From a virus (lineage: Duplodnaviria > Caudoviricetes): 38,301 nt of DNA. The notes under the pieces were generated by a model. It had not been told where the DNA came from, did no database searches, and worked only from the letters and a program-made list of their open reading frames with translations. The position numbers and the translations under genes were made by a program. Of the stretch, positions 3,101-31,612 are shown in pieces. How positions within the stretch are numbered: position 1 is the first letter of the stretch; each line of letters opens with the position of its first letter. The DNA lies in the IMG/VR virus record IMGVR_UViG_3300025653_000094, positions 1 to 38,301 of that record; one strand, written 5' to 3'.

Positions 3101-4266
3101 CAGATCTGACATATGCCGCAATGAATGACGCAGGTAGATCACCAGCTGGCGAACAACTTTTTCCTGAAAATGAAACAAGGCTCAATAAATCTATAACTAT
3201 GTTTGAGCATCTTGGAAGCGCAATGATGCCCGGATCTTTAAACAGTGTTATCAATCTTATTGATGCAGGGCAAGGCGCTAAACGAGCAGCTACAGGTACA
3301 GAGAAAAAAGATTTAAGTGCTGAACTGCTTGCAAACTTCACAGGCGTTAAGTTTTCAAAGCTTGATCCAGCAGATAATTTATTTTATGCGGCTCAAGACT
3401 ATATGGCCTCTAAGCGTGGCCTTATGAAAGGTAAGCCTGACTATGAAGTAGAGCCAGAAGAACTTCAAAGGCGCGTAACACGCAATCTTGAAGCAAACTA
3501 TTCTGCACAACAAGACCTGTATCTAAAAGTAGAAGCCGCTAGAGATTTAATCGGTACTGAAAAAACCTATGAAATGCTAGTAAATGGTGGCCTAAGTCGC
3601 AAAGCTGCTTTGGCTTTGATGAACAACCACTACTATGATTCTAATTGGGCAGATCAAAACATGGCTGGTCTTCTGAAGATGCCCGGAACAAATCAAGAAA
3701 TGCAAGAGACTATTCAAAAGATTACAGAAGAACAGTTGAAGTATCGTTATAGCCCACTAATTCCTGTAGACGAAGAATCTGTACGCGCACGAAATGAGCG
3801 TGATAGGCTTGCTAGAGGCGGTGAAGTCAAAGATGTTCCTAATGTTCCGACTGAGCCTGATGAGCGCATCAATAAAGTTACAGGGCTTCCATACAACGAA
3901 ACTGCTGGGCCTGCCTTTATGGACGAAGAAGATCCTATGAGGCGTCTACAGCTTTCTGAAGGCGGCATTACAAGGCGCTTTGCTATTGCCAAAGGTGGCA
4001 AGATCGACAAGAAAAAGATGGCCTGTAATAAGCCTCGACGCACACCGAACCATCCAAAGAAGTCTCATGTTGTAAAAGCCTGCGAAGGCGGTAAAGAAAA
4101 GATAATTCGCTTTGGTGAGCAAGGCGCAAAGACTGCTGGTAAGCCCAAGGCAGGCGAGTCAGCGCGTATGAAGGCCAAGCGTAAGAGCTTCAAGGCTCGT
4201 CACAGAAAGAACATTAAGCGCGGCAAGATGTCTGCGGCTTATTGGGCTGACAAGGTTAAGTGGTAA
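115..4266 (+). CDS. Large internal virion (ejection-type) protein with appended C-terminal modules
   Basis: 1383 aa, largely helical-looking with Gly/Ala-rich hydrophobic stretches; size and late-arm position fit podovirus ejection proteins; last ~150 aa contain three R-x5-GG motifs and a Lys/Arg-rich module. Confidence 0.65.
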   Translation: MATYTAKVNTPYGVIEVEHDGTPSDQELIQKALTKVKQNELLKNFETSETPQELAVTKAKMPRDVEPIDEEEENLRADVVQNLSRLGSGPLGLVKDAINGAANLVGADKNLISDEYFNATKREFVRGLGALVGVKPEDVLTEEGEYKPMTTTAGAALQVVPYIAGGAGAAKAIGTVAPKLPVLFNGILSGLTVDQVLYEKEDGAIANVLQEADIPAEGMLKDLLEFMAIQEDDTVLEQRLKIALEGMAIGGTLEGFIRGVKGGKDFIFPSNGTVEEQVDAATKYLKDSRQEVQVRNSEIHSDLKFSETPEGVAQIEQQASGPINRFISQIRTSRGYFTPQAYNLFRGKEYAERQLVREAENISNRLTKSLDRLDYTIPEKTLNDFFTGRNLERMELEIAPTASKEARLEWIAADMGIPREVASELIKARELIDSLSSRLANSSIPNEEFREGILENVGEYVRRSYRMFEDTNFKPDENLKHQVVKQLQDAKIADGLDEAQAYEEALGEVNAILDKRTDFAGLDYFSRAVRVNREILTGRKNIDPMIRELMGEITDPADNILLTVSKMAKLVETNKFADNLKTLATGKYIFNSPVSRNGVDYNVKISGTNSGLDGTYTTKEMATALQGRQSHFALFDNDLLRSFAALKGGSQAMKTVASHVTHLRNVLGGAQFGLANGINPFFDRQETFKVLVNAAKAEGDEGLDKLYEKYLGLGVINTNVRIGEFRRLLQEGSDINIEPRQLFDRLQGYGLGGIEEKIKVPAKVGRSAYRAAEKIYMAVDDFYKINAFNKELSVLKEAFPDEALEVLEQRAATIVQDTFPNYDKVPNGVKALRYLPIGSFVSFPAEIIRTSTKIVKQASDEITSGNAQLRARGLQRLAGFTTSMNAWEGIAITAGTLVGLTPEEQESVQNISHTPWSKATRIPYRGEDGQLYVADTQFLDSYSVLKEPIKEVMHRIQSGQLKGEALDKYMTEAVLDGSEKLLAPYLGQSIITESISDLTYAAMNDAGRSPAGEQLFPENETRLNKSITMFEHLGSAMMPGSLNSVINLIDAGQGAKRAATGTEKKDLSAELLANFTGVKFSKLDPADNLFYAAQDYMASKRGLMKGKPDYEVEPEELQRRVTRNLEANYSAQQDLYLKVEAARDLIGTEKTYEMLVNGGLSRKAALALMNNHYYDSNWADQNMAGLLKMPGTNQEMQETIQKITEEQLKYRYSPLIPVDEESVRARNERDRLARGGEVKDVPNVPTEPDERINKVTGLPYNETAGPAFMDEEDPMRRLQLSEGGITRRFAIAKGGKIDKKKMACNKPRRTPNHPKKSHVVKACEGGKEKIIRFGEQGAKTAGKPKAGESARMKAKRKSFKARHRKNIKRGKMSAAYWADKVKW

Positions 4267-4526
4267 CGCTCAGTAAGATTGTATGGCGTGATGCCGTTGG
4301 AGGCTCAAACATGGGCTGGCGTCCTCTACTAGCTTTAAAAGAACAAGAGACCGCTACAGTAATTTCTTGTGGGGCTATCATCTATGAAGACGATGAAAAA
4401 ATAATTATATGTCCACATATGATTATTGAAAACAATGAAATATCAGAAGGCGATGCAGAGATTGCAATACCAAAGGCTTGGATAATTTCAAGAGAAAACT
4501 TATTAGGCTTACCACCGGGAGATTAA
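4260..4526 (+). CDS. Hypothetical protein (W-x-D...W...CG-x-I...IP-x-x-W pattern)
   Basis: 88 aa, GTG start overlapping the upstream stop; globular beta-rich pattern recalled from small phage proteins. Confidence 0.7.
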   Translation: MVTLSKIVWRDAVGGSNMGWRPLLALKEQETATVISCGAIIYEDDEKIIICPHMIIENNEISEGDAEIAIPKAWIISRENLLGLPPGD

Positions 4527-4529
4527 ATT

Positions 4530-4919
4530 ATGCCACTTTTTAATAGTGTAAAAGACGCTGAAAAAGCAATGAATGCCATAAACACTGCTAGCAAAGTTGT
4601 TGGAATAGGTAAATTAATTACTAATCCTACACCATTAGGTGTCGGTGCGGCATTGGCAAATGTGGCCTCTAAAGAAATGACAGGAAAATCTTTGGAGCGC
4701 CATGCAATGGACTATGCTCGTAAAAATATTAAAGCACCTACAGGTACAGGCAACGTAGGCCGTAATAAAAAGGGCGCGACTATTCAAGAAGGCCCAAGCA
4801 ATCCTACGCCCAAGCAAAAAGGTAAAAAAGAAATGCGGGTCGGGCAGTATGCTAGTGGCGGCAAAGTAGATTATAAAGACATTGGGCATATGCACACTAA
4901 AGTGTGTGGACACAAATAA
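4530..4919 (+). CDS. Small basic protein with a YASGGKV motif
   Basis: 129 aa; GGGAG upstream; operon-like spacing. Confidence 0.75.
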   Translation: MPLFNSVKDAEKAMNAINTASKVVGIGKLITNPTPLGVGAALANVASKEMTGKSLERHAMDYARKNIKAPTGTGNVGRNKKGATIQEGPSNPTPKQKGKKEMRVGQYASGGKVDYKDIGHMHTKVCGHK

Positions 4920-4920
4920 T

Positions 4921-5220
4921 ATGCCAATAAAAAAAGTAAAGGGTGGTTATAGGTGGGGAAGTCGCGGAAAAGTTTATAAGCGTCGAGAAGATGCAGAAAA
5001 GCAGGCGGCGGCTGCATACGCCTCTGGCTATAGAAAAACCTATAACGAAGGGAGTAGAGTTAATGAAGCAGGCAATTACACGCAGCCTACAATGCGTAAA
5101 AGATTATTTGAACAAATTAAATCAGGCTCTAAAGGTGGGGCAGCGGGTCAATGGTCTGCGAGAAAAGCTCAGATGCTGGCGAAACAATACAAAGAAGAGG
5201 GTGGCGGCTACAAAAGCTAA
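4921..5220 (+). CDS. Small basic two-module protein; C-terminal part resembles the N-half of DUF5872-like proteins
   Basis: ATG at 4921, 1 nt after the previous stop; GGAAGQWSARKAQMLAKQYK-x-x-GGGY signature (family recalled from memory). Confidence 0.7.
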   Translation: MPIKKVKGGYRWGSRGKVYKRREDAEKQAAAAYASGYRKTYNEGSRVNEAGNYTQPTMRKRLFEQIKSGSKGGAAGQWSARKAQMLAKQYKEEGGGYKS

Positions 5221-5252
5221 GTTTTATATAAAACTATACAAAAGGAATCTTC

Positions 5253-5555
5253 GTGACTCTTAAAAAATCTCAACAGTCTTTAAAGGATTGGATAAAAGAA
5301 GATTGGGGTACAAAGTCTGGTAAGCCTTCGACGCAAGGCCCAAGTGCTACAGGAGAAAGATACTTGCCTAAGAAGGCTAGAGAGTCTCTTAGCTCTGCTG
5401 AATACGCAGCAACCTCTGCAAAGAAAAGAGAAGACACAAAAAAAGGCAAGCAGTTCTCCAAGCAGCCCAAGAATATTGCTCAAAAAACTGCTCGCCATAG
5501 GGCCAGTAGAGGCGGCTTCCTTGCCAACGCTATGCCTACTGGCAAACCCTGTTGA
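5253..5555 (+). CDS. Small basic protein resembling the C-half of DUF5872-like proteins
   Basis: SQQSLKDW-x-KEDW-x-TK...ERYLPKKA...KKGKQF; AAGGA upstream of the GTG start. Confidence 0.7.
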   Translation: MTLKKSQQSLKDWIKEDWGTKSGKPSTQGPSATGERYLPKKARESLSSAEYAATSAKKREDTKKGKQFSKQPKNIAQKTARHRASRGGFLANAMPTGKPC

Positions 5556-5760
5556 TTGCATCAATCTCTGTCTCTAACTTTGCGTGTATATCCCCAGTAA
5601 TTTCTTTAAAGGATCTAATCGCCGCACGAATTAATACTTGAGACTCTTCTTCCTTGAAGACCTTGGCGATGTGATGATCTGGTAACTCAGTATGCTCAGT
5701 GACTAGAACACCATCTGAGTCTATCAAGATCTTAAAGCCAATAATAGTTCCTTCTTTCAT
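5536..5760 (-). CDS. Hypothetical protein, last gene of the replication arm
   Basis: 74 aa; AAGGA RBS; starts 15 nt after the nrdJ stop. Confidence 0.7.
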   Translation of the reverse strand: MKEGTIIGFKILIDSDGVLVTEHTELPDHHIAKVFKEEESQVLIRAAIRSFKEITGDIHAKLETEIDAINRVCQ

Positions 5761-5775
5761 ACCGCTTCCTTTTAA

Positions 5776-7641
5776 TTATAATTCACAAGCTCCACCAACG
5801 CAAGCTAATGTTTGCGACCCCTCTGTAAAGTCATCTGACTCATTCAAATCCCAATCAAAAGACTCTGGGAATCCTTTCATCATCTCATTATATTCTTTCT
5901 TTGTGATCTGCTCATAGGGGGCTTGAGCGTATGTATGATTGTCATACGGCAAGAAAGATATGCCAGAGATTGTATCAAAGTTATTGTATACCCAATTACC
6001 GATTTCAAGAAAGTCTGAGTCACGGTAATAGACTGTGATGCTAGGCTTGTGTTCACACCAATGTTCTTGGTATACGGCCCACAACTGTAGTTGCTCCATT
6101 CCTGTCTGCTCTGAGGCGAACACAGCAGCCTCTGGAGCCTTCTTAGGGAACGAGAATACCTTAGTACTGGGTGAAAGGTTATCTATTTCACAAGGCACTC
6201 CAGCGTCTTCTAAGACCTTACATAGTGGATCTCGTACATCAGCCCTAACCCGTCGAATATAATAAGGGGCATAACGTCCGTGTATGCCTGACGCAGAATC
6301 TACAAGTTGGGATACCGTACCGCTAGGCTTAACGCAAGTGATAGCTGTACTCTGAGGAATGCCAAGCCGCTCTGACCAAAGCTTATTAGTTTCGATGGCT
6401 TCATTGCGTAGCTTCTCTAATAAAGATCCCAAGTTAGGATTGTCTAAGGTTAGGAGTGGGTTGTCTAGAATACCAGTAAGACTAACGCCCAACAAAGACT
6501 CTTCCTCAGTATTAGTTTTCCAGATATTTCTTAAGTATCTAAAGTCCGTTAAGGTAGCTTGGAGAGTACCCAAGATAGTCGCAACTCGTACTTTTCTCCT
6601 AAGACTGTTAAGCGTATCTTCCGGTCTGACGACCACTTCTGAAAGGTTGCAGAATTGATTTGGTCTAAGGATGATTTCACTGCAAGGGTTCGTTCCGAAA
6701 TCTCGTTCACTATCCCGTCTACCGTTTCTTGCAGCTTGTTTTTGACTTGCAGCACGGCTGAAGATTCCGCGCTCTCCGCTTTGTGATTCATGTAGGCTAC
6801 TCCATTCGTTAGAAAATAAATTAAAGGAAGGCTTGCTAGTATAGCAGGCACTATTATTTGCAAGGCCGCGTTGGGGTTCTGTATTGTACCAAGCACCATG
6901 CTTTGCTTGACGAATATCATCGTCCTGTAAATCAGAGAGGCTGATTAAAGCACTGCGCCTTACCCCTCCAACAACAACTATTTGAGCGATTTTGCAGCAA
7001 AGATCGTGGCATTCAAGGGGCGTAAGCTTTCGTCCAGCCGCTCCGTTAAATAATCTAACTGTAAATTTGAAGAGGTCAACAAGAGGTTCTGGGCCACTTG
7101 CTCTACCTCCAAAAGTTTTAAGGCTGGAACCCGCAGGTCGAACTCTAGATGTATCCCATTCTGGTATTTGACCACTATACAACAACGAAACCAATTCCCT
7201 AAACGATTTCGCCCATCCAATTTTTGAATCCGGTACATGAATGACTGTATCTGTTGCATGGAAATCCTCTGCAATTTCTGGAAGTTTAGAAACGTACTTT
7301 TCTTCGACGCTAAATCCTACACCTGTGCCGCACATAAGGACATACATCATCTCATCAAAGGCACGAGGACTATCAATAGCGAGATAGCTACAGTTAAAGC
7401 CTGCTACATTGTCGCGGTCTAGTGCTTCTCCTGCGGTCATAAGCGCCCTCATAGAAGGCATAACCTCTAGATCGTAAATAGATTTAAAGATTTCTGAGAC
7501 ATCGAAATCATTTAAGTATCCTTTGTCTACCCAATAATTAACGTATCGGTTGACAGTTTCTTCCCATGTTTCTCTACGCTGTTCTTCTGGTAGGTAACGA
7601 GCGTATCTGCTTTTGTGTATGTATTGTTGATAAGCGTCCAA
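5776..7641 (-). CDS. nrdJ: Class II (adenosylcobalamin-dependent) ribonucleotide reductase
   Basis: FNCSY, GGVRRSA, catalytic TNPCSEI, TCVKPSGT and C-terminal CVGGAC redox pair; no beta-subunit gene nearby; TTG start with AGGAG upstream. Confidence 0.93.
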   Translation of the reverse strand: MDAYQQYIHKSRYARYLPEEQRRETWEETVNRYVNYWVDKGYLNDFDVSEIFKSIYDLEVMPSMRALMTAGEALDRDNVAGFNCSYLAIDSPRAFDEMMYVLMCGTGVGFSVEEKYVSKLPEIAEDFHATDTVIHVPDSKIGWAKSFRELVSLLYSGQIPEWDTSRVRPAGSSLKTFGGRASGPEPLVDLFKFTVRLFNGAAGRKLTPLECHDLCCKIAQIVVVGGVRRSALISLSDLQDDDIRQAKHGAWYNTEPQRGLANNSACYTSKPSFNLFSNEWSSLHESQSGERGIFSRAASQKQAARNGRRDSERDFGTNPCSEIILRPNQFCNLSEVVVRPEDTLNSLRRKVRVATILGTLQATLTDFRYLRNIWKTNTEEESLLGVSLTGILDNPLLTLDNPNLGSLLEKLRNEAIETNKLWSERLGIPQSTAITCVKPSGTVSQLVDSASGIHGRYAPYYIRRVRADVRDPLCKVLEDAGVPCEIDNLSPSTKVFSFPKKAPEAAVFASEQTGMEQLQLWAVYQEHWCEHKPSITVYYRDSDFLEIGNWVYNNFDTISGISFLPYDNHTYAQAPYEQITKKEYNEMMKGFPESFDWDLNESDDFTEGSQTLACVGGACEL

Positions 7642-7762
7642 TTATATTACTCCTTTCTTGGGTGGTATATTTTGACCAGTTTTTTATTTCAGTTAGATTC
7701 CTTCCGCATCCTATACAAACATCATCCTTTAGTTTGCATATCTTTGTACATGGTGATTTCAT
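7574..7762 (-). CDS. DUF1289-like Cys-rich protein
   Basis: SPC-x-x-x-C...C-x-GC-x-R-x-x-x-EI-x-x-W; ATGA coupling to the upstream ORF. Confidence 0.75.
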   Translation of the reverse strand: MKSPCTKICKLKDDVCIGCGRNLTEIKNWSKYTTQERSNIIGRLSTIHTQKQIRSLPTRRTA

Positions 7763-7917
7763 TCCATCTCATCTATAGTATTCAAATCATTTATATTTAA
7801 TTTATATTTGTTTCTTTTCTTCAGAGGCTTGAAGCGTTCTTCATCTTTATCTTCGTGTTTCTTTCTTTTGTGGCGGCTGAATTTTTCTAGGCGCTCGCGC
7901 TTTCGATCATTCATCAT
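7759..7917 (-). CDS. Small charged hypothetical protein (52 aa, not in the ORF track)
   Basis: Translated by hand: MMNDRKRERLEKFSRHKRKK...IDEME; overlaps both neighbours. Confidence 0.6.
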   Translation of the reverse strand: MMNDRKRERLEKFSRHKRKKHEDKDEERFKPLKKRNKYKLNINDLNTIDEME

Positions 7918-8386
7918 CTTCCAAGCTTCCTCGCTTTGTTACATCTATCCAATCTTCTGGAATGCTATCTTCAGAGAACCATCTAAATTCTTTTGAAGAT
8001 GCCCACTCAGCATGATTGCGTTTTGTGCCATCTTTTCTGCGCTTTGCTTGAGGCATTGGTGCGTTGGGATCAGCAAACAAAAAGACTAATTCAGTGTCTT
8101 CAGGCAGAGCCTTAGCAATCCAAACATATTTATTGTATTCGCTATGATCCCAGAAGCGGCCCTTAGCTTCTAAATAAATTTTCTTTCCATCAACCTCTTT
8201 GATAAAGTCAGGGTGATAAGTATGCTCAACAATATAATCAACCTTCTCTGAGTGAAAGCTCCATTGATTAAGTATGCCAGAGTGTAGTTCATATTCCCAG
8301 TTTGAATCGTAGCCAGAAACAACATTTTTTTCTTTTGGGCGTCTAACTCTTTGGGGCCGCGAACCCTTCCTTATTTTTGGTTTCAA
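7907..8386 (-). CDS. T7 endonuclease I-like Holliday junction resolvase
   Basis: YDS-x-WE...Y-x-PDF...YLEAKGRF (PD-(D/E)xK core); located in the replication module. Confidence 0.85.
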   Translation of the reverse strand: MKPKIRKGSRPQRVRRPKEKNVVSGYDSNWEYELHSGILNQWSFHSEKVDYIVEHTYHPDFIKEVDGKKIYLEAKGRFWDHSEYNKYVWIAKALPEDTELVFLFADPNAPMPQAKRRKDGTKRNHAEWASSKEFRWFSEDSIPEDWIDVTKRGSLEDDE

Positions 8387-8535
8387 TGTATTGTTTCCTT
8401 TTCTTGCGTATCACCATACATATGATGCAAATGATAATAGATCTGTATTAATGCCTGCTCATCTAAATATTTTTCTTGTATTATTTTTGTTGCACAATAA
8501 CAAATTAAAATTTCTAGCGGCAAATTCTCTATCAT
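8383..8535 (-). CDS. Small hypothetical protein (50 aa, not in the ORF track)
   Basis: MIENLPLEILICYCATK...KETIH; fills the gap exactly with 4-nt overlaps at both ends. Confidence 0.65.
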   Translation of the reverse strand: MIENLPLEILICYCATKIIQEKYLDEQALIQIYYHLHHMYGDTQEKETIH

Positions 8536-8801
8536 GATAAATCAAGATGACTATAAGAGTCAATAGGTCTAGATGGATTACGCCTATATAATTTCTTCAA
8601 CCTCTTACGAGTCCAATTTTCTGTAAAGGCAGACATAAAAAATTGACCTTCAACGAAATAATGGCTGTTCATTTTCATATAATCTTTATAATTATCTGGT
8701 CTAATTTTAGCTGCCTCTTCTTCTGACATAAGACTATGAAGCCATTGAAGAGAAATCTTCTCGACCTGACGATTAATCTGCTTCATTATTTTTCTATTCA
8801 T
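8532..8801 (-). CDS. Hypothetical protein
   Basis: 89 aa; ATGA-coupled on both sides. Confidence 0.7.
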   Translation of the reverse strand: MNRKIMKQINRQVEKISLQWLHSLMSEEEAAKIRPDNYKDYMKMNSHYFVEGQFFMSAFTENWTRKRLKKLYRRNPSRPIDSYSHLDLS

Positions 8802-9652
8802 ACAATCTCTTCTACCCTTGGAGCAACCTCAACATGCGTCAGATATGTGGGGCCATTAGCATACTTAAATGCTCTTAAGCCTCTACCATTGTTAGCGTCT
8901 TTATAACACTCAAACTTATAAGAACAGTAGTTACAATTTCTATTCAGCTTCATGTTACCTTTCTTGCCATCAGGCACAGACTCATAACATCTTGCTGGAG
9001 GCGTAGCCAGCTTCAAGGCTTTACGAACATCTTGAATCTGTTTGCTTATGTTGGGCTTGTCTAGCTCTTCTGGGCGATATAGACAAAGCTCACCGCTCTC
9101 TTTGTTAATAACTAAGAAGCCGCCTTCAGAAGACTTTTCAGCTTCTTCATAGCCAGCAAGCTGCGACATATATCCAAAGGGATCGTCTTCTCGCAGGCGT
9201 CCTTCACGAAACTTATTGAAGGCTATCTTAGATGCAGTCTTTACATCTACTACCTCACCATCAATCTTGCAGTCGATATGCCCTTTGATCCCACGAACAT
9301 CTATTTCTTTTTGTTCGTCACTGACTTTGTGGCCTGCGGCACGAACAAGCATAAGAACAATCTCTTCAAGGATATGTCCGTAAAGAAACTTAACTTGTGT
9401 GGCTGGAGAGGGTACTGAAGATTCAGATGGCAGATTGTATTCGTACCAAAGCTGCCTAGCTGGGCGACCAATGTTAGACATACGCAAGGTAAACTCAGAG
9501 TTTCTTTCTGAAGGCCTTGCCCATGCTAAAACGGAATCTTTAATACGAGCTAGTGTAAAGTCCAGATCTTCTTCTGATAAATTAAATTCACGGCCTTCGG
9601 ATAACTCTGAAAGCTGTCCATAAATATCGTCAATTAATGTGTCAAGTTTCAT
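8798..9652 (-). CDS. PD-(D/E)xK exonuclease, RecB/Cas4-like
   Basis: GHIDCKIDGEVVDVKTAS, Y-x-x-QL-x-x-Y, C-terminal CNYC-x5-C. Confidence 0.85.
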   Translation of the reverse strand: MKLDTLIDDIYGQLSELSEGREFNLSEEDLDFTLARIKDSVLAWARPSERNSEFTLRMSNIGRPARQLWYEYNLPSESSVPSPATQVKFLYGHILEEIVLMLVRAAGHKVSDEQKEIDVRGIKGHIDCKIDGEVVDVKTASKIAFNKFREGRLREDDPFGYMSQLAGYEEAEKSSEGGFLVINKESGELCLYRPEELDKPNISKQIQDVRKALKLATPPARCYESVPDGKKGNMKLNRNCNYCSYKFECYKDANNGRGLRAFKYANGPTYLTHVEVAPRVEEIV

Positions 9653-9933
9653 GCTCTATGCCTTACGAAGCGACACTTCCGTGTCTTTGAATTGTAGTGT
9701 AAATATTGTACACCAAGTTCTTTTTGAAGTGGAGTCTTAGATGATAGCCTGCCATCTTTGTAAGACTTTACATCTATTAAAGTGATCTCTCCCTCTGGAC
9801 TCATAGCCACAATATCTACTGGCCCTGTGCATCCACAGTTCTTGAACACATGATAGCCGTTATCCCACAGCCATGTAACGGCATAGTGTTCTGCTAGATC
9901 ACCGACCCTGTTAGGCTCTACTTGATTAGACAT
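9649..9933 (-). CDS. Small PD-(D/E)xK endonuclease (resolvase-like)
   Basis: GDLAE...GY-x-VF...PVDIV...LIDVKS. Confidence 0.75.
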   Translation of the reverse strand: MSNQVEPNRVGDLAEHYAVTWLWDNGYHVFKNCGCTGPVDIVAMSPEGEITLIDVKSYKDGRLSSKTPLQKELGVQYLHYNSKTRKCRFVRHRA

Positions 9934-10414
9934 TTTTTAAATCCTCTATATTTTTTAATTCTTTTATTGGTAGGTTGTAGCAATCTGCGCTTACTCTCCA
10001 TCCATTGCTTGGATCTGTTTGACCTTTCTTTAGAAAAACTGCCCTATCAAAATACTCTTCTTTTGTAAGATATCCCAATATCCAACCCTCTTCCATGTTG
10101 TTTAATATGCGCGTAAACACATAAAAATTACAGGCTTGTTTTGTATTAAACGCGGCGATAGAGCATTCGTAGTTTGGTCTTGGGGGCGTATTAACTCTTT
10201 TTGTTTTAACATCAATAGTAAAAGACTGTAGTTTTAAATCGTAATCATAGGTATTTTCTATTGTGGCCTCTAAAAAATTAGAAACTATTATCTCTCCAAG
10301 AAACCCGTGAGTGCTTCCTTTTCCAGATGTAATAGAATTATTTATTATTCCCATAGCGCCTGCTTTTTCTTTTGCAATGTCTATGATATCCTGAGATATG
10401 TTAGTGTGTTTCAC
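9926..10414 (-). CDS. Putative restriction-endonuclease-fold nuclease
   Basis: G-x-LGE...YDYDL...IDVKTK pattern; AT-rich; overlaps the polymerase stop. Confidence 0.6.
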   Translation of the reverse strand: MKHTNISQDIIDIAKEKAGAMGIINNSITSGKGSTHGFLGEIIVSNFLEATIENTYDYDLKLQSFTIDVKTKRVNTPPRPNYECSIAAFNTKQACNFYVFTRILNNMEEGWILGYLTKEEYFDRAVFLKKGQTDPSNGWRVSADCYNLPIKELKNIEDLKNV

Positions 10415-22488: not shown

Positions 22489-22500
22489 CGTCTTTCCCTG

Positions 22501-22930: not shown

Positions 22931-22942
22931 GCTACATAGTCT

Positions 22943-22971
22943 ATTATATACATGAAAATGAATTTTGTCAA
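22943..22971 (-). promoter_or_regulatory. Perfect-consensus sigma70 promoter, leftward
   Basis: TTGACA (22971-22966), 17 nt, TATAAT (22948-22943). Confidence 0.85.
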
Positions 22972-23012
22972 GACTTTTGCCAACTATTACCAAAAAACAA
23001 TGTATATACTAC

Positions 23013-23041
23013 TTGACAGTTTCTAATATCAGGTATATAAT
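23013..23041 (+). promoter_or_regulatory. Perfect-consensus sigma70 promoter for the packaging/structural arm
   Basis: TTGACA (23013-23018), 17 nt, TATAAT (23036-23041). Confidence 0.88.
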
Positions 23042-23049
23042 ATATAGTT

Positions 23050-23445: not shown

Positions 23446-23653
23446 CAGTACTATTCCATTTGGCTATAAGCTAATGGAAGATGGAGAACACTTAGAAGAA
23501 ATTGAGGTCGAATTAAAAGCCCTCAATAAAATTGTTCCGCTAGTAAAAAATAAAGTTTTATCTTTACGCGAAGGAGCAATGTGGATTGAATACGATACGG
23601 GTAGAAGTATTTCTCATACTGGCCTAAAAAAGATTGCAGATCGCTATGAATGA
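23429..23653 (+). CDS. Small putative DNA-binding protein (IPFGY; resembles the serine-recombinase DNA-binding domain)
   Basis: IPFGYK...SLRE-x-A-x-W...GR-x-ISH-x-GL-x-K; overlaps terS and terL. Confidence 0.65.
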   Translation: MKRRSSSTIPFGYKLMEDGEHLEEIEVELKALNKIVPLVKNKVLSLREGAMWIEYDTGRSISHTGLKKIADRYE

Positions 23654-25325
23654 TTGGGAGACTAACCCCGATGCGTATATGCGAAACGACAACGGGGATT
23701 TTATACTCAAAAAGGATGGAACACCTCGTAAAAAAACTGGCAGACCCAAAGGTTCGTCAGGTCGAGGCTACAACTACCACTCCCAAACCAAGGCCAAAAT
23801 TGAAGCAAGAAAAACTGTACGAAAGAAAGAAAAACGATTAGCGCAGGTACGCACCAAACTAGAAAACTACAAAAGGTCGCTTGACACTTCTAAGAGTACC
23901 TTAAAAAAATTAGAAGGAACTGAGGCAAAAGCCGAGGGTAAAATAACAACAGAAACGGCTAATTTGCCCAAGGCGTTAAGGACTGTCGCAGAAGAGAATG
24001 TCATCTTTAGGCCCAACGACGGCCCACAAACTGACTTTCTTGCCGCTTCTGAGACTGATGTTTTGTATGGTGGTGCGGCTGGTGGAGGCAAGAGCTATGC
24101 GATGTTGGTTGATCCTCTTCGCTTTGCTCATCGGGCCGCGCATAGGGCTTTAATCCTGCGGCGTTCTATGCCAGAGTTACGCGAACTCATAGACAAATCT
24201 CGTGAACTCTACCCGAAAGCCTTTCCCGGTTGTAAGTACAAAGAAGTAGAAAAGCTCTGGAACTTTCCGTCAGGAGCTAAAATAGAATTTGGATTCTTGG
24301 AAAGAGATGCAGATGTTTATCGCTACCAAGGACAAGCGTATAGTTGGATTGGGTTTGATGAGATTACGCACCAAGCTACAGAGTTTTCTTGGAATTACTT
24401 GGCTTCACGATTGCGTACAACAGATCCAGAGATTATACCTTATATGCGGTGTACCGCTAACCCCGGTGGTGTTGGAGCGCATTGGGTAAAGAAAAGATAT
24501 ATTGATCCTTCACCGCCCTACGAAAGTTTTAAGGGCGCAGACGGATTAACAAGAAAGTTTATACCGGCTAGGTTGGACGATAATCCATACTTAGCCAATG
24601 ATGGTCGATACGAACAAATGCTGAAGGCGTTGCCACCTACGCAACGCAGACAGCTACTAGAAGGTGATTGGGAGGTTGCAGAAGGTGCGGCCTTCACAGA
24701 GTTTGATAGAAACCTTCATGTTATTGCACCTTTTGAAATCCCAATGCACTGGGAAAGAATTAAGGGCATTGACTATGGATATGCTTCAGAATCAGCTTGT
24801 GTCTGGGGAGCCGTAGACAAAGACGATGGCACACTAATAATTTATAGAGAATTGTATCGTAAAGGTCTACTAGGCACTGACCTAGCTCACATAATATCTG
24901 AAATGGAGCTAAATGATCCAATGAGCGTTCCGGGCGTATTAGATACAGCGTGTTGGAACAGAACAGGGCAAACAGGCCCAACAGTCGGAGAAACACTAGT
25001 TAAGGCTGGTCATAAACTCCGAAGAGCAGATAAAAACAGGGTTGCAGGAAAAATTCAAATCCATGAATACTTGAAGACTCAGCAAAGCGGAAGGCCCAAA
25101 ATACAAATATTTAATACTTGTCCTAACCTGATACGCGAACTTCAAAGTATTCCTCTGGATAAAAGTAACCCTGAAGATGTTGATACTCATGCGCCTGATC
25201 ATGCGTATGATGCTTTAAGGTATTTGATCATGGCTAGACCAAGAGTAAATGATACTTATAGCCAAATTCGTCAGTTTCATAGAGAAACTGTATTTCAACC
25301 AGCAGACGGAACATTTGGATATTAA
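23646..25325 (+). CDS. terL: Terminase large subunit with a basic N-terminal extension
   Basis: Walker A YGGAAGGGKS, Walker B WIGFDE, CTANPGG, nuclease GIDYG and DHAYDALRY. Confidence 0.95.
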   Translation: MNDWETNPDAYMRNDNGDFILKKDGTPRKKTGRPKGSSGRGYNYHSQTKAKIEARKTVRKKEKRLAQVRTKLENYKRSLDTSKSTLKKLEGTEAKAEGKITTETANLPKALRTVAEENVIFRPNDGPQTDFLAASETDVLYGGAAGGGKSYAMLVDPLRFAHRAAHRALILRRSMPELRELIDKSRELYPKAFPGCKYKEVEKLWNFPSGAKIEFGFLERDADVYRYQGQAYSWIGFDEITHQATEFSWNYLASRLRTTDPEIIPYMRCTANPGGVGAHWVKKRYIDPSPPYESFKGADGLTRKFIPARLDDNPYLANDGRYEQMLKALPPTQRRQLLEGDWEVAEGAAFTEFDRNLHVIAPFEIPMHWERIKGIDYGYASESACVWGAVDKDDGTLIIYRELYRKGLLGTDLAHIISEMELNDPMSVPGVLDTACWNRTGQTGPTVGETLVKAGHKLRRADKNRVAGKIQIHEYLKTQQSGRPKIQIFNTCPNLIRELQSIPLDKSNPEDVDTHAPDHAYDALRYLIMARPRVNDTYSQIRQFHRETVFQPADGTFGY

Positions 25326-25435
25326 TGAACAAAAAAGTTTGGCGACCGTTAAATACATACGGTATTTATTTTTTAGGAATTACGGTTGGGTGGACAATGA
25401 TATATGCTCTCGTTAGCCTAACAACAATAGGATAA
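25325..25435 (+). CDS. Small membrane protein (36 aa, not in the ORF track)
   Basis: MNKKVWRPLNTYGIYFLGITVGWTMIYALVSLTTIG; TAATG-coupled to terL; ends 2 nt before the portal ATG. Confidence 0.55.
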   Translation: MNKKVWRPLNTYGIYFLGITVGWTMIYALVSLTTIG

Positions 25436-25437
25436 TC

Positions 25438-27606
25438 ATGTCAGAATTTGAAAACACTCTTGTAGAAAATGCCGATAACCTTTATTTTGAAAAAACTGAA
25501 GGCGAAGACGGCTTAGAGCTTAATGCTGATTCACAGATTAAATCTAATTTGGCTGGGCTTATTGAGGCCCGTTACATTGAAGCAGAGCTTGCAAGAGATG
25601 CTGATGAAAATCGTTGGATTACTGCCTATCATAACTTTCGTGGCCTATATCCTAAAAACGTAAGATTCCGCGAAAACGAAAAATCTCGTGTATTTATTAA
25701 GGTTACAAAGACTAAGGTGCTTGCAGCCTTTGGTCAGCTTGTAGACGTTATCTTTGGAACAGGAAAGTTTCCGATTGGTGTATTACCTACGGTGCTACCT
25801 GAAGGTGTTTCTGAATATATGCACCTTAGTTCTCAGCCGACTGCTGGAATTGAAACTGCTGAAGCGCCAACACCTCCAGAAAAACCTAAAGAAGAAAGCG
25901 GTATTGGTTATAAAGGGGATGGTCGTGTATTAAAGCCCGGAGCTACGCTTAACTCTGGTAAAGGTATTTTTGAAGATTTAGAAGCTGCCGAAGAACTAAC
26001 ATTTGAAGAAGGCCCGTCGCCCATTCCTGAAATGCTTGAAATTTCTCCTGCTAAAGAAGCAGCCAGAAATATGGAAAAGTTAATTCACGATCAGATTGAT
26101 GAATCTAATGGTTCTACTGAACTTCGCAATGCTATGTTTGAATCTACTCTTTTTGGCACAGGTATTGTAAAAGGGCCATTTAATTATAACAAGACTTTGC
26201 ATCGTTGGAGTGATGAAGACGGAGAACGGGTTTATGATCCAATTTTTGTTAGAGTTCCTCGTATTGAGTTTGTTAGCGTCTGGGACTTTTTTCCTGATCC
26301 TAATGCTACTTCCATTGATGAGTGTGAATACATTGTTCATCGACACAAGTTAAATAAATCTCAGCTTAGGGCATTGCGTAAAATGCCATACTTTAACGAA
26401 GATGCTATTCGTGATTGTATGATGCTTGGCCCAAATTATGTTGAAAAAGACTATGAGTTTGAGCTAAAAGACGATCAAAGAATGTCTGATATGGGTTCAA
26501 GTCGCTTTGAAGTCTTAGAGTATTGGGGCTTAATGGACGCAGAATACGCCAAAGAAATTGGCATGGAGCTTCCTGAAGGGGTAGATACACTTGATGAAAT
26601 ACAGATTAATGCTTGGATTTGTAATGGCCTTGTACTCAGGGCTGTTGTTAATCCCTTTACGCCATACCGTATTCCATACAATGCCTTTCCATACGAAAGA
26701 AACCCATATAGTTTCTTTGGTATAGGCGTTGCCGAAAACATGAACGACAGTCAGCAGATTATGAATGGTCATGCACGAATGGCTATTGATAATCTGGCGT
26801 TAAGTGGTTCATTGGTTTTTGACGTAGACGAGACTATGCTTGTGGGTGGTCAAAGCATGGAAGTTTATCCCGGCAAAGTCTTTAGGCGTCAGTCTGGTAT
26901 GCCCGGACAAGCAATACACGGGCTTAAGTTTCCGAACACATCTCAAGAAAATATGATGATGTTCGATAAATTCCGACAGCTTGCAGACGAGCAAACAGGT
27001 ATTCCTAGCTATTCTCATGGTCAAACAGGCGTACAGAGCATGACTCGTACTGCATCTGGTATGTCAATGCTGCTTGGTGCTGCATCGCTTAACATTAAAA
27101 CAGTTGTAAAGAACTTAGATGACTTTTTGTTAAAGCCTTTAGGCAAAGCATACTTCCAATGGAATATGCAATTCTTTGATGGTAAGTTAAAGACTGAAGG
27201 TGATCTAGAAATAAAAGCATTAGGTACAAACAGCTTGATGCAAAAAGAAGTGCGAAGTCAACGATTGACTATGTTTCTTCAAACTGCTCAAAATCCTGCT
27301 ATTGCTCCGTTTGTTAAAATGTCAAAGCTTATTAGTGAACTAGCATATAGCTTGGATCTTGATCCTGATGAAATACTAAATGATCCCGAAGAAGCAGCAC
27401 TAGCTGCACAGATTATAGGAATGCAAAACAATGCTGGACAAGGAAGTGGCGAACAGGCTGGCCCCGCTGGTGAACAACCCGGAGCTATGGGGGCCGTTGA
27501 AGGAACACCTGAACAACCTGCGGATGTTGGAGTTACAGGCACTGGCGGTGGCAACATCGGAACAGGAAATGTTCCGCAAGCAGGGGAAGGCGAGTTCTCT
27601 GGCTAA
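25438..27606 (+). CDS. Portal protein
   Basis: 722 aa after terL; LFGTGIVKG, WDFFPDP, FFGIGVAE, RTASGMSML patterns of podovirus portals. Confidence 0.9.
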   Translation: MSEFENTLVENADNLYFEKTEGEDGLELNADSQIKSNLAGLIEARYIEAELARDADENRWITAYHNFRGLYPKNVRFRENEKSRVFIKVTKTKVLAAFGQLVDVIFGTGKFPIGVLPTVLPEGVSEYMHLSSQPTAGIETAEAPTPPEKPKEESGIGYKGDGRVLKPGATLNSGKGIFEDLEAAEELTFEEGPSPIPEMLEISPAKEAARNMEKLIHDQIDESNGSTELRNAMFESTLFGTGIVKGPFNYNKTLHRWSDEDGERVYDPIFVRVPRIEFVSVWDFFPDPNATSIDECEYIVHRHKLNKSQLRALRKMPYFNEDAIRDCMMLGPNYVEKDYEFELKDDQRMSDMGSSRFEVLEYWGLMDAEYAKEIGMELPEGVDTLDEIQINAWICNGLVLRAVVNPFTPYRIPYNAFPYERNPYSFFGIGVAENMNDSQQIMNGHARMAIDNLALSGSLVFDVDETMLVGGQSMEVYPGKVFRRQSGMPGQAIHGLKFPNTSQENMMMFDKFRQLADEQTGIPSYSHGQTGVQSMTRTASGMSMLLGAASLNIKTVVKNLDDFLLKPLGKAYFQWNMQFFDGKLKTEGDLEIKALGTNSLMQKEVRSQRLTMFLQTAQNPAIAPFVKMSKLISELAYSLDLDPDEILNDPEEAALAAQIIGMQNNAGQGSGEQAGPAGEQPGAMGAVEGTPEQPADVGVTGTGGGNIGTGNVPQAGEGEFSG

Positions 27607-27664
27607 CTTGCTAACACTTCAAGAACAAGTAAATCAAAGACGAAAGGAAAAAGACGATGGCTAA
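27431..27664 (+). CDS. Small helical protein of the type found after portal genes (Bbp19-like)
   Basis: LVN...W...FR-x-QG-x-x-x-x-L-x-x-L; AGGA upstream; overlaps the portal 3' end and the next start. Confidence 0.65.
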   Translation: MLDKEVANRLAPLVNNPELWGPLKEHLNNLRMLELQALAVATSEQEMFRKQGKASSLANLLTLQEQVNQRRKEKDDG

Positions 27665-29261
27665 AAAATTTCCAGATCTAACAGGCGACGGTGAAGTAAC
27701 CTATGCAGATGTATTAGAAGGTCGTGGAGCTTTTGCTGAAGGGTCTTTGCTATCTTCTTTAGAAATGAGCCTTGAAGAAATAGACGATGAAGCAATTGTA
27801 AAATTAACAGGAAAAGACCCTAGCCCAGAAAGTAGAAAAGAAGCTTCAGAAATTTTAAAGTTTATGTCAGAAGCTGGAGAAGCTATTCTTGAATTAAACT
27901 CATCAAAAAAACCTACTACCCGAAAAGGAATTGCAGAATATAATAAAAAACAAAAAGAACTAACTAAAAAAGTTGATAAACTAAAAAAAGACTTAGGTTC
28001 GCAATTTAATTTTTTTAAATATCAAATTTTAAGAGATGCTGGAAGAGTAGAAAAAAATGAAGGCGGTGAAGTTGATAACTACATTGAACTTTTTGAACAA
28101 ATGCAAATGTCTTTAGAGAAGGCAAAATCTGAAGAAGAAGAAAATATAATTCGTCAAAGATTTGAACAATCTACTAAAGGTTTTGATCAAAACATTATTA
28201 TGCAAGCCTATAAAAAAATGGACGCTATGCGCGAACAAATGTTTGAAGGTGGATCTTTAATGGTTCCTCCAGAGCGTGAAGCATATGGTAAAGGTGGTGC
28301 AATCTTAGACCTTGTAGCGGCTCTTACAGGCAAACAAACCAAAGTCGCTAAGAAAAAGATGGTCGATGAAGAAAAGGCTCTTCAAGACCTATCTAAAATG
28401 ATTGAAGACAACCCAAGGGTATTAGACGAACTTTCAGACGAAGATTATGAAATGGTCGTTTCAAAACTTCCACAGCGCCAAGCCGCAAAGTTAGGCATGG
28501 GCGAAGAGCCTTTAACTGATATGGTTGAAATGGCTCGTGGTATGGAGCCAGCAGAAGTAGCTAAAAATCTTGAAATGTTTAATGACATTGACGAAATTTT
28601 TGAATATACCGATACCCTTGATGCTAAAGGCGCTCGACAGTTTATGCAAAATCTTTCGGACGAAGATCTTGAAATCTTTGGTGCAGATCTTCCAGATGTA
28701 GGCGCAACGCTAGGCCCAAGAGAATTAAAAGCTGAAGGTGGCGAAATTCCAGAAGATACATACAACAATCTTAGCCCAGAAGATAAAATGGAACAAGCCG
28801 AAGATATGCTTCCTGACGAAGAAATGGAAGAAGAGTATGTAGACTTTGTAGCCTCAGAAATTTTAGATCAAGAAGAACAAGATTATTTATTTAAGGCTTT
28901 GGATGACGATCCTCGGCTTGAAGAAATTTTAGATAAAGTAATTTTAAATGCAACAGAATTTGCTGGTTCTGGGGAAGTTGAAGGCCCCGGTACTGGTATA
29001 TCAGATTCGATACCCGCAAGGTTATCGGATGGTGAATTTGTTTTCACCAAAAAGGCGACCGACCAACTAGGCGCAGACAATCTCCAAGTTATGATGGATG
29101 ATGCAGAACGTGCTTACGATGGCGGTCTTATGGCTATGGCAGAAGGCGGTATGCCTGTTGATGATCGTTATAGTAATCAACAACAAGACGAAGATCAAGA
29201 GGAAAAAGTAGAAGATCAAATGCTCTACGCAAGCCGAATGCCTAGTCTTATGAACCGATAA
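27657..29261 (+). CDS. Acidic multi-module protein with repeated R-x5-GG motifs and a GPGT-SDSIPARLSDGEFV domain; candidate maturation protease
   Basis: ORF is solid (534 aa, AAGGA RBS); function inferred from position and motifs only. Confidence 0.55.
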   Translation: MAKKFPDLTGDGEVTYADVLEGRGAFAEGSLLSSLEMSLEEIDDEAIVKLTGKDPSPESRKEASEILKFMSEAGEAILELNSSKKPTTRKGIAEYNKKQKELTKKVDKLKKDLGSQFNFFKYQILRDAGRVEKNEGGEVDNYIELFEQMQMSLEKAKSEEEENIIRQRFEQSTKGFDQNIIMQAYKKMDAMREQMFEGGSLMVPPEREAYGKGGAILDLVAALTGKQTKVAKKKMVDEEKALQDLSKMIEDNPRVLDELSDEDYEMVVSKLPQRQAAKLGMGEEPLTDMVEMARGMEPAEVAKNLEMFNDIDEIFEYTDTLDAKGARQFMQNLSDEDLEIFGADLPDVGATLGPRELKAEGGEIPEDTYNNLSPEDKMEQAEDMLPDEEMEEEYVDFVASEILDQEEQDYLFKALDDDPRLEEILDKVILNATEFAGSGEVEGPGTGISDSIPARLSDGEFVFTKKATDQLGADNLQVMMDDAERAYDGGLMAMAEGGMPVDDRYSNQQQDEDQEEKVEDQMLYASRMPSLMNR

Positions 29262-29377
29262 GGCTACCTAGAAAATCTAGCCCCTTATCATTTTATAACC
29301 TTGAGGCCACCTTGTAGTATCAAGACCCTGTATTAAATAGCGCATTAATACAGCCACCTTGAAAGACAACAAGCCCC
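29257..29377 (+). promoter_or_regulatory. Structured leader: three GCYAC-CTWG-loop-CWAG-MCCC hairpin units before the scaffold gene
   Basis: Units at 29262-29284, 29305-29328, 29352-29377; 9-bp stem CTGTATTAA/TTAATACAG between units 2 and 3. Confidence 0.65.
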
Positions 29378-29393
29378 ATAAAGGAGAGTGACA

Positions 29394-30215
29394 ATGAGTG
29401 AAGAACCGCAAGCGAATCCGTACAATCAAAAAAAGGCTTGGCATGAGCCTGATGGCCCACCAAGACAAAGTGCAGATTCATTGTTTTTTGAAGAAGAACA
29501 AGAGGCTACTTCCGAAGAAGATGGAACCCCTCAAAAACAAACTTCTTCTCGTACCAATTATAAAAAGAGATATGACGATCTAAAAAAACATTATGATCAA
29601 AAGATTTCTGAATTTAAACAACGTGAACAAGAACTAGAGGCTGTGGCCCAAGCGAATCGTCCTCGCTATCAGCCACCTAAAAGCATCGAAGATCTTGAAC
29701 GTTTTAAATCAGATTATCCTGATCTATATGATACTGTCGAAACAGTAGCTCATATGCGAAGCGAAGAGCAAATGAATGCCCTTCAAAAAAAGCTTGCGGC
29801 TATTGAACAACGCGAAGCAGAAATGTCTAAGCGCGATGCCGAAGTTAAGTTGCGAGAGCGACACCCTGATTTTGAAGATATTAGGGGTGATGACAGGTTT
29901 CATGAATGGGCTAAAGAACAACCTGAAGAAATTCAACGTTGGATTTATAAAAACCCAGATAATGTTATGTTAGCAAGTCGTGCCATCGACCTTTATAAGA
30001 TGGAAAACAACATTGCAATTAAATCTTCTACTCGTAGATCACAGCCTTCAAAGTCCAATGCGGCTGATATGGTATCAACAAAGACTACCGGCGTTGAACC
30101 AAAGTCAGCCAAGATATGGACGCAACGGGAAATTGCTGCTTTGTCTTTGGATGACTATGATAAATACGAACAAGAAATTGATCTAGCCATCCGCGAGGGA
30201 CGAGTAGCAAGATAA
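29394..30215 (+). CDS. Capsid scaffolding protein
   Basis: YKKRYDDLK coiled coil, HPDF, C-terminal EIDLAIREGRV; directly before the capsid gene; AAGGAG 7 nt before the ATG. Confidence 0.85.
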   Translation: MSEEPQANPYNQKKAWHEPDGPPRQSADSLFFEEEQEATSEEDGTPQKQTSSRTNYKKRYDDLKKHYDQKISEFKQREQELEAVAQANRPRYQPPKSIEDLERFKSDYPDLYDTVETVAHMRSEEQMNALQKKLAAIEQREAEMSKRDAEVKLRERHPDFEDIRGDDRFHEWAKEQPEEIQRWIYKNPDNVMLASRAIDLYKMENNIAIKSSTRRSQPSKSNAADMVSTKTTGVEPKSAKIWTQREIAALSLDDYDKYEQEIDLAIREGRVAR

Positions 30216-30242
30216 TAACTTGTCTTTTAGGAGTAAATTAAA

Positions 30243-31229
30243 ATGGCTTATAACGTAAGTGATCAATATTTTGAGCCAGCAACTGATACCAATGCAAACT
30301 TTGCAAACTCAGTTTCTGGTCAAGCTAACTCATTCTTCCTTCCTGCTGTCTATTCAAAGAAGGTTCTTAACTTCTTCCGAAAGTCATCAGTATGTGAAGC
30401 CGTAACCAACACTGACTATGCTGGCGAAATTGCGGCATTTGGTGATAGCGTAAATATCATCAAAGAGCCGGTAATTACCGTCTATCAGTACGAGCGTGGT
30501 GCAGACGTAACGTCTACCAAACTGACCGACCAAGAGCTTACTCTTGTTGTTGATCGTGCAAACGCATTTAAGTTCATTGTCGATGACATTGAAACCAAAA
30601 TGTCGCACGTAAACTTCAAAGAAGTAGCATCTTCTTCAGCGGCTTATGCGTTGCGTGATGCTTTTGATGAGGGCGTGTTTGCTATTATGCAAGCTGGTCT
30701 TTCTTCATCTTCACCTGACCACACGCTTGGTGCTGACTCAGCTACCGATTTGGGTGCTGGTGTATATGATGGCGCTGGTGCTATCGACGTAGGCATTTCT
30801 GGCGAAACCGATCCTTTGGACGTTCTTGCTCGTATGGCTCGTTTGCTGGATGACCAAAACGTACCCGAAGAGGGTCGCTGGGTTGTAGCATCTCCTGACT
30901 TCTATGAGCAACTCTCTCAGAGCGGTTCTAAGCTGTTGTCAGTAGACTACAACGCAGGCCAAGGCTCTATTCGCAACGGTTTGGTAAGTTCTGGCAAGTT
31001 GCGTGGATTCTCCATGTACAAGTCAAACAATATGCCTGCTACGTCTAACGCAACTGGCTTTATGCTAGCTGGTCATATGAGTGCTGTTGCAACTGCACAA
31101 TCCATCACTAGCACAGAGGTCATTCGTGATCCTTCTAGCTTTGGTGACATTGTTCGCGGTCTGCACGTTTGGGGTGCTAAAGTTCTGCGCCCTGAAGCAC
31201 TGATCGGTGCTTACTACAACATCGACTAA
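30243..31229 (+). CDS. Major capsid protein
   Basis: F-x-P-x-x-YSK, TNTDY-x-GEI-x-x-x-GDSV-x-I, VPEEGRW, GDIVRGLHVWG-x-KVLRPEAL. Confidence 0.93.
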   Translation: MAYNVSDQYFEPATDTNANFANSVSGQANSFFLPAVYSKKVLNFFRKSSVCEAVTNTDYAGEIAAFGDSVNIIKEPVITVYQYERGADVTSTKLTDQELTLVVDRANAFKFIVDDIETKMSHVNFKEVASSSAAYALRDAFDEGVFAIMQAGLSSSSPDHTLGADSATDLGAGVYDGAGAIDVGISGETDPLDVLARMARLLDDQNVPEEGRWVVASPDFYEQLSQSGSKLLSVDYNAGQGSIRNGLVSSGKLRGFSMYKSNNMPATSNATGFMLAGHMSAVATAQSITSTEVIRDPSSFGDIVRGLHVWGAKVLRPEALIGAYYNID

Positions 31230-31237
31230 GATGCTGG

Positions 31238-31268
31238 GATGGGAGGGTGAAATACCCCTCCCGTTTTT
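31238..31268 (+). terminator. Rho-independent terminator after the capsid gene
   Basis: GGGAGGG...CCCTCCC stem followed by GTTTTT. Confidence 0.8.
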
Positions 31269-31281
31269 AAAGGACTAAAGT

Positions 31282-31434
31282 ATGCCATTAATTTCAACTC
31301 CTAACAAGCCAATTAGCATGAAGTTGACTGAAAACAAAAGAGGGCGTTACCGTAGTGTAGACCACAAAAAGTATTCAGATAACTACGACAAAATATTTGG
31401 CAAGAAAGATAAGGAAGAAAAAAATGAAAGATAA
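31282..31434 (+). CDS. Small basic protein (50 aa, not in the ORF track)
   Basis: MPLISTPNKP...YSDNYDKIFGKK; AAGGA RBS. Confidence 0.65.
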   Translation: MPLISTPNKPISMKLTENKRGRYRSVDHKKYSDNYDKIFGKKDKEEKNER

Positions 31435-31612
31435 AAAGCGAGTAGACTACATGATAGGCGGTAAAACACGTTCTATGTATATGGGCGGTGGATATGGTTC
31501 AAAGCGAAACATGATGTCTAAAGGCGGTATGGCCCATGACTATAATAATATTATGGAAATGGAAGCCAAGCAAATGTCTCCAGACCATAACGAGTCAATG
31601 AAGCAAAAATGA
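31424..31612 (+). CDS. Small Met/Gly-rich protein with three R-x5-GG motifs
   Basis: Start at ATG 31424 (AAGGA RBS); RVDYMIGG, RSMYMGGG, RNMMSKGG. Confidence 0.7.
   Translation: MKDKKRVDYMIGGKTRSMYMGGGYGSKRNMMSKGGMAHDYNNIMEMEAKQMSPDHNESMKQK

Follow-up and report, generated by a model that had tools for sequence, protein, structure and literature searches.

How does a short-tailed phage choose the proteins that it carries? The question is raised by the virus record IMGVR_UViG_3300025653_000094, an HTVC103P-type marine podophage whose entire 38,301-base record (the window) was analysed here. An earlier note on this DNA had listed 13 copies of a short peptide in late proteins, with arginine exactly six residues before Gly-Gly or Gly-Ser (R-x5-G-[GS]), and had proposed that one phage protein recognises it, either to cut polyproteins or to recruit cargo. 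We found that the motif is real, enriched over shuffled sequence and confined to the late strand, and that it is a lineage-sharpened peptide tag whose source is the flank of a widespread domain that has no name (hereafter the cassette).

A motif enriched on the late strand

The motif-bearing proteins, given in residues (amino acids, aa) or as open reading frames (ORFs), are the following.

115..4266, + strand: 1383-aa large virion-module protein, with three motif copies near its C-terminus followed by the fused module A; families PHROG 22602 'virion structural protein' (residues 449-998) and phrog_7595 (residues 1298-1383)
3799..3822, + strand: motif RDRLARGG of the 1383-aa protein
3943..3966, + strand: motif RLQLSEGG of the 1383-aa protein
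3976..3999, + strand: motif RFAIAKGG of the 1383-aa protein, at the joint to module A
3994..4263, + strand: module A (phrog_7595), a small basic module
4530..4919, + strand: 129-aa ORF with the near copy RVGQYASGGKV at 4836, 20 residues before its end
4921..5220, + strand: 99-aa ORF made of phrog_31267 (residues 1-36), RKTYNEGS (5032) and phrog_17747 (residues 41-98)
5253..5555, + strand: 100-aa ORF made of phrog_14910 (residues 1-83) and the C-terminal motif RHRASRGG (5493)
27657..29261, + strand: 534-aa cassette protein with five R-x5-G-[GS] copies (27723, 28044, 28230, 28275 and 28719, + strand), an acidic linker, the cassette and a C-terminal MAEGG copy
31424..31612, + strand: 62-aa ORF whose first half is three tandem motif copies (31439, 31469 for the middle one, and 31505)

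All 13 listed copies translate as the earlier note had given them. Using 60 hand-curated ORFs (12,111 aa) and 1000 rounds of per-protein shuffling, we counted 16 matches to R-x5-G-[GS] against 5.96 ± 2.40, and 16 was reached in none of the 1000 shuffles. All 16 were on the late (+) strand (expected 3.8), and the early proteins had none (expected 2.3). As a look-elsewhere control, Arg at -6 was the top combination of residue and offset before late-strand Gly-Gly (12 of 46 sites), and none of 300 Gly-preserving shuffles gave an equally extreme one. Exact copies are found in five of the six late proteins that had been named; in the sixth, the 4530 ORF, the Arg is at -7. The matches that had been set aside as chance-like are in fact three and not two (2290, 24447 in the TANPGG motif of the terminase, and 36435). 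The terminase peptide RCTANPGG (24447-24470), overlooked earlier, fits the R-x5-G-[GS] pattern but is a motif of the terminase ATPase domain.

The wider consensus reads (R)-x2-[FYKM]-A-x-G-[GS]-x-hydrophobic. Its Arg at -6 is a feature of the lineage (58% of 233 sites in homologues of the 534-aa protein), and the part common to other phages is [FYKM]-A-x-G-G-x-hydrophobic. A first held-out matrix, trained on homologues of the 534-aa protein only, was over-fitted and gave a non-significant result in the other window proteins (2 versus 0.45, equalled in 22 of 300 shuffles). The second matrix, built from 297 tape-measure and 197 homologue sites, recovered 6 sites in the late proteins other than the 534-aa protein versus 1.1 expected (0/200), and 1 versus 0.4 expected in the early proteins. 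The near copy of the 4530 ORF scored 8.3, second best in the window; the copies of the 5253 ORF and the 62-aa ORF ranked low (≤1.8) and are the weakest members, and relatives of both ORFs retain a Gly-Gly copy.

Consistently with the earlier statement that conservation is at the peptide level, no DNA repeat underlies the copies and the Arg codons vary (CGN 14, AGA 8 at -6). Neighbouring residues diverge, yet the Arg at -6 and the Ala at -2 persist under differing codons. A DNA repeat or fixed recombination signal as the basis of the motif was ruled out, since the codons vary. The first Gly codon is GGY at 67 of 71 motif sites versus 742 of 955 other Gly-Gly pairs.

The flank of an unnamed cassette domain

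The cassette, of about 65 residues, is located in the core of the 534-aa protein.

28959..29150, + strand: unnamed cassette domain, residues 435-498, with D450 (29004), S457 (29025) and G459-E460 (29034)

No Pfam model matches it, and a literature search, in which subscription papers were largely outside reach, found no paper describing the motif or the cassette. Its profile matched 29,451 protein clusters at E ≤0.001 (1.84 billion representatives searched) and 673 records of the 'phages' collection, most among the matches listed being tape measure proteins. In the PDB sequence file it matched the tape measures of Douge (gp16, two copies, E 3.6e-37), JBD30 (gp46 1018-1070, E 1.2e-8) and lambda (gpH 733-787, E 9.7e-6). 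TIGR01541 met the cassette at model positions 252-314 with E 8.6e-5, far below its whole-protein cut-off.

Among 454 unique copies from 115 large proteins, the cassette kept D in 99%, S/T in 95%, G in 99% and E in 97%, with no conserved Cys. The same copies had the upstream flank [FY]-A-x-G-G-x-[VI] (F/Y 87%, A 87%, GG 98-99%). The motif is thus the cassette's own flank, which supports the earlier proposal of a shared signal on late proteins tied to this domain (there called GPGT-SDSIP).

In a tandem split-cassette family of podovirus-like proteins (552 relatives; 84 unique pairs, forming a single lineage and one evolutionary event), the first half retains D (100%) but has P/E and T/S in place of S and E, while the second half retains S and E (100%) and lacks D. 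This complementary loss fits a putative single site built from two cassette copies, for binding or for catalysis. Tandem split cassettes occur in contigs assigned to betaproteobacterial genomes (L095:5833-8160, L096:1502-3277, L097:5932-8058 and L098:2146-3852). A bridging family (107 unique sequences, retrieved with a sequence pattern) shows homology to the cassette (97%, E 8e-11, a match favoured by its selection by pattern) and has H, E and E where the cassette has D, S and E; only the Glu is therefore universal across the variants, which weakens the case for a fixed catalytic triad.

AlphaFold2 gave a single-cassette model with a predicted local distance difference test score (pLDDT) of 71 (88-94 in the helical half, 52-68 in the first half), for which neither Foldseek nor VIA-align found a PDB match or a protease fold and a viral library returned likely homologues only. 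The tandem form was unusable (pLDDT 57, predicted template modelling score 0.20), and the homodimer prediction (0.36 versus a mark of 0.42, controls ≤0.10) gave no answer and is not evidence. Two giant proteins (P0256 and P0268, 7794 and 7872 aa) hold 10-11 cassette matches each. A second block, G-D-T-x-L-A-H-I-[ST]-P-x-E-A...G-G-S-G-T-I-N-P with FAxGG before it, occurs in cassette-bearing proteins (L088:3486-5489, L090:3153-5327, L091:31-1845 and L265:5936-7585) and aligned with the cassette in the D/S/E register, but only at P=0.078.

The 534-aa protein, compared across 80 related loci listed and 119 homologues, is a chain of modules ahead of a constant core. Among the 119 homologues, 12 different arrangements of its five window segments are seen, and in the printed examples the borders are at Gly-Gly, one module ending in R-x5 and the next beginning at G. 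The phrog_14910 module of the 5253 ORF is fused via the motif to the cassette protein at three loci (L017/L018/L020), and the two PHROG families of the 4921 ORF (phrog_31267 and phrog_17747) are joined by it. The N-terminal segment 1-28 of the 534-aa protein is present in 90 of the 119 homologues; the first module (window 27666-27707) resembles a single calcium loop of EF-hand/dockerin type, D-x-T-x-D-G-x-V-T-x-x-D.

Tags are also gained and lost at protein ends. Among 66 unique relatives of module A (drawn from 80 of about 4,900 stretches), 44 are free and untagged, 18 are free with an N-terminal motif leader of 7-8 residues (MRxYYKxGG, e.g. MRRYYKSGG), two are fused via the motif and two have it at the C-terminus; untagged orthologues begin at the joint. 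Of eight ends of the largest virion-module proteins inspected by eye, three lie ≤17 residues from a motif copy, one lies 45 residues from a copy, one is a fused module and three have no copy. In relatives of the 62-aa ORF the third copy is best kept, and an 86-aa protein of a related genome (G018, L266:14314-14574) consists largely of tandem K-K-K-G-Y-A-K-G-G-M units and is possibly a multivalent tag protein. Two terminase-sized proteins (L262:13680-15239 in G004 and L263:8185-9735 in G017) carry A-L-M-R-F-R-x-G-G-[FY] at their C-terminus, a stretch that the matrix scores like a copy of the motif and that may be either a real tag or a coincidence.

Outside the cassette protein, 11 cassette-bearing genomes held 59 motif sites versus 25.7 expected. 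These genomes are mutually related, and G003 (81% complete) was excluded. The co-occurrence that the earlier note had asked about was found as an enrichment in this phage group, not as a strict link to the cassette, genomes with and without a detected cassette being poorly separated.

Candidate readers of the motif

The late + strand genes run in the order terminases, portal, 534-aa protein, scaffold-like protein, capsid and tail genes, and the left end of the window (the 1383-aa virion protein and small ORFs) also consists of + strand late genes.

25438..27606, + strand: portal protein (Pfam PF23899, PHROG 1216), without motif
29394..30215, + strand: scaffold-like protein (phrog_13678, unknown function; probable role taken from its position), without motif
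30243..31229, + strand: major capsid protein, best cultured match HTVC115P (59.7%), without motif

As noted earlier, capsid and portal have no copy, and the scaffold-like protein likewise has neither R-x5-G-[GS] nor a high matrix score. The capsid is closest to those of the Pelagibacter phages HTVC115P, HTVC104P and HTVC103P, with HMO-2011 next. Since the genomes of these closest cultured phages measure 54-55 kb versus 38,301 bases here, part of the virion module is missing. The 1383-aa protein has no PDB relative.

Terminal tags and mixed Arg codons lead us to infer that a protein reads the motif. Our tentative preference, short of a firm one, is that the motif is a docking tag which the cassette would read, gathering cargo into the assembling head. 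What is observed behind it is the motif and its enrichment, its identity with the cassette flanks, the exchange of modules at Gly-Gly, and the gain and loss of terminal tags. The tag would be the flank of the D-S-E cassette in detached form, and the cassette, a predicted oligomer near the portal, would bind it; cassettes may pair so that the Asp of one copy and the Ser/Glu of the other form the one site that binds. The 534-aa protein would be a portal-side cargo protein like crAss001 gp45, and the tagged proteins, namely the largest ejection protein and the small basic modules, would thereby be loaded. Because each module ends in the upstream half of the tag and starts with the downstream half, recombination at Gly-Gly would rebuild an intact tag, giving the phage a way to gain or shed cargo. 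The reading allows for cutting at the tag but does not require it.

The crAss001 protein gp45 offers this reading a parallel. An Atlas lead (0.83, at chance level by the tool's own figures) pointed to it as crAss cargo protein 1. Its module borders carry x-A-x-G-G, and among 28 crAss proteins it alone reaches matrix scores ≥4 (four copies). In the accessible text of PMC10172136, its resolved pieces are 214-245, located in the tail, and 425-552 (12 copies), bound to the portal wing, 420 Å apart; as far as given there, both begin at or just past a motif copy, and the portal-bound piece holds G427-G428 and G447-G448 uncut; a cut before Ala425 would still be possible. The four gp45 peptides quoted in that text span no motif copy, its accessible part contains neither 'cleav' nor 'protease' and has 'motif' once, and the supplements searched, including two of that paper, held no peptide lists. 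Applied to 1,259 proteins, an after-the-fact pattern selected gp45 alone; it also matched 40 of the 45 crAss homologues and 72 of the 107 bridging sequences. Homology of the gp45 domain to the cassette is on this comparison a lead only. Under table 11, two of the 45 unique stretches homologous to gp45 contain in-frame stop codons (L373:1501-1800).

Several observations weigh against the docking reading. Pfam PF25725 gave no match at E ≤5 to the window region or to four related cassette proteins; profile comparison of the crAss domain with the cassette gave P=0.012 (above 30 of 30 column shuffles), that of the bridging family with crAss did not exceed shuffles (P=0.009), and the bridging hidden Markov model misses gp45. 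Five near-complete genomes without a detected cassette held 17 motif sites versus 9.6 expected; three of them were at chance, and G012 and G016 were individually enriched. The 44 of 66 module-A relatives without a tag count here too, as do the three of eight largest virion proteins without a terminal copy. The split tandem family represents one evolutionary event. Moreover, siphophages carry the cassette in tape measures, hence in the tail, which means that it must have some role besides portal loading.

A doubtful but serious competitor holds that the cassette is a small dimeric protease which reads the motif and, as the particle matures, splits polyprotein-like cargo into its modules, and in lambda cuts gpH itself. 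Its site would consist of two carboxylates, or of carboxylates and His, perhaps with a metal. The near-invariant D, S/T and E with their complementary loss in the tandem family would suit this reading, as would the untagged orthologues that start at the joint. The interval between portal and scaffold, where the 534-aa gene lies, is the usual position of a protease gene, and no known protease was found in a complete relative. Large tape measures hold up to 11 matching stretches, with Pfam enzyme domains in 7 of 15 proteins scanned. On the other side, no residue but the Glu is universal (D/S/E in this phage, H/E/E in crAss and the bridging family, and His at the Ser position in lambda), no protease fold matches, two Gly-Gly copies are intact in the resolved part of crAss gp45, and capsid and scaffold have no site. 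P22/T7-type podoviruses are not known to require a head protease.

Lambda sharpens this question. FATGG (733-737) and YATGG (778-782) stand on either side of the gpH cassette, and a cut within 733-737, directly before it, would yield pieces of 12.3 and 80.0 kDa by computation. The accessible text of PMC12617516 (2025) describes a piece of about 14 kDa cut from the glycine-rich region of gpH after tail assembly, with site and catalyst unknown; the two sizes roughly agree, which proves nothing. Lambda gene K (L099:4777-5001), three genes past H, is annotated as a C40 peptidase, making gpK a candidate alternative enzyme for the gpH cut. For JBD30 a 'hook' is predicted at the cassette region, in which the authors found no peptidase motif according to the part of PMC11445458 available, and in T5, from the available part of 10.1101/2022.09.20.507954, the cut precedes a metallopeptidase motif. 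The accessible portions of PMC1796659, PMC13033339, PMC12724387, PMC10504331, PMC6235969, 10.1101/2022.12.01.518664 and PMC12014285 give no cleavage site. In its broadest form, which we consider unlikely, the protease reading makes the cassette an unrecognised miniature dimeric protease family in virion proteins of siphoviruses, podoviruses and possibly crassviruses, reading [FYK]-A-x-G-G, cutting lambda gpH into gpH* and gpHC, and turned in marine podophages into a stand-alone loader-cutter of modular, tag-addressed cargo.

The motif could also be a flexible joint only, inherited from the cassette, in which GGY-GGN homology favours swaps and no reader acts in trans. This would explain the borders of exchanged modules exactly at Gly-Gly, the excess of GGY at the first Gly codon, the many untagged module-A relatives and the weak co-occurrence with the cassette. 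We judge it improbable, since terminal copies and tandem-copy proteins join nothing, so that a plain linker is of no use there, and since Arg -6 and Ala -2 are kept with different codons while their neighbours diverge. Just as improbable, in our estimate, is a functional tag with another reader (portal wing, scaffold, capsid interior or a host protease). The two enriched genomes without a detected cassette speak for it, as do the Gly-Gly-bearing start of the gp45 piece within its portal-wing-bound segment (accessible part of PMC10172136) and a 1973 T5 paper that, by its title alone, names host involvement in tail-protein cleavage; the motif, however, flanks the cassette in siphophage tape measures, beyond the reach of portal and scaffold, and persists in phages whose hosts range from Pelagibacter to Mycobacterium and Bacteroides. 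Of the two uses proposed earlier, cutting and cargo tagging, both remain the leading readings, with the docking tag ahead of the protease, while the head-protease analogy finds no support.

These results touch two open questions, the selection of carried proteins by short-tailed phages and the site and agent of the cut in lambda gpH, and offer a single candidate answer: a domain that is spread over about 29,000 protein clusters and lacks a Pfam model, together with a short tag. Lambda and crAss001 can both be cultured, and the results point to particular residues in each that could be mutated. Should the tag be enough for loading, it would be a simple route to address proteins into phage particles.

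Comparison with known systems

The earlier note had likened the motif to the Gly-Gly sites of adenovirus and African swine fever virus (ASFV) and to phage head-protease sites, an analogy that found no support: a prohead protease gene was sought in 20 late window proteins with Pfam and PHROGs, and with Pfam in 51 ORFs of at least 70 aa from the complete relative G022, and none was found; the only Pfam peptidase among window and G022 ORFs was the tail chaperone S74. By analogy the motif may work like the T4 capsid-targeting system. As with T4 gp21 and capsid targeting and with the phiKZ/SPN3US head proteases, it is a short motif shared by cargo, with short, removable-looking leaders (here in 18 of 66 module-A relatives), yet it fails the tests of that family: no such protease is found, capsid, scaffold and portal have no site, and the motif, built on Gly-Gly, is also found inside proteins and at C-termini. 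With the adenovirus/ASFV maturation proteases it shares the di-glycine site and polyprotein-like substrates; unlike there, no cysteine protease family was detected here and the cassette has no conserved Cys. Ubiquitin-like Gly-Gly conjugation (E1/E2/JAB) was rejected, as no such Pfam family occurs in the window or G022 and the copies are internal or followed by further residues.

Like the 534-aa protein, gp45 (PF25725, PDB 7QOG) has motif-delimited modules, small basic cassettes and a C-terminal motif with a basic tail, and its G-x-[ST]-H...V-E-x-G-E-V core is in register with the cassette's L-S-x-G-E-F; in the accessible text of PMC10172136 it binds the portal in 12 copies. Unlike the window protein, it has a predicted membrane helix and is located in the ejection cluster. 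Lambda-type tape measures (TIGR01541 tail) share the same cassette, with its GE[FY]V core and [FY]AxGG flanks, and gpH is cut in that region. Here, in contrast, the cassette belongs to a 534-aa podovirus head-cluster protein encoded between portal and scaffold and not to a long-tail tape measure, and its flank stands alone on at least five other proteins, often terminally and with an added Arg at -6.

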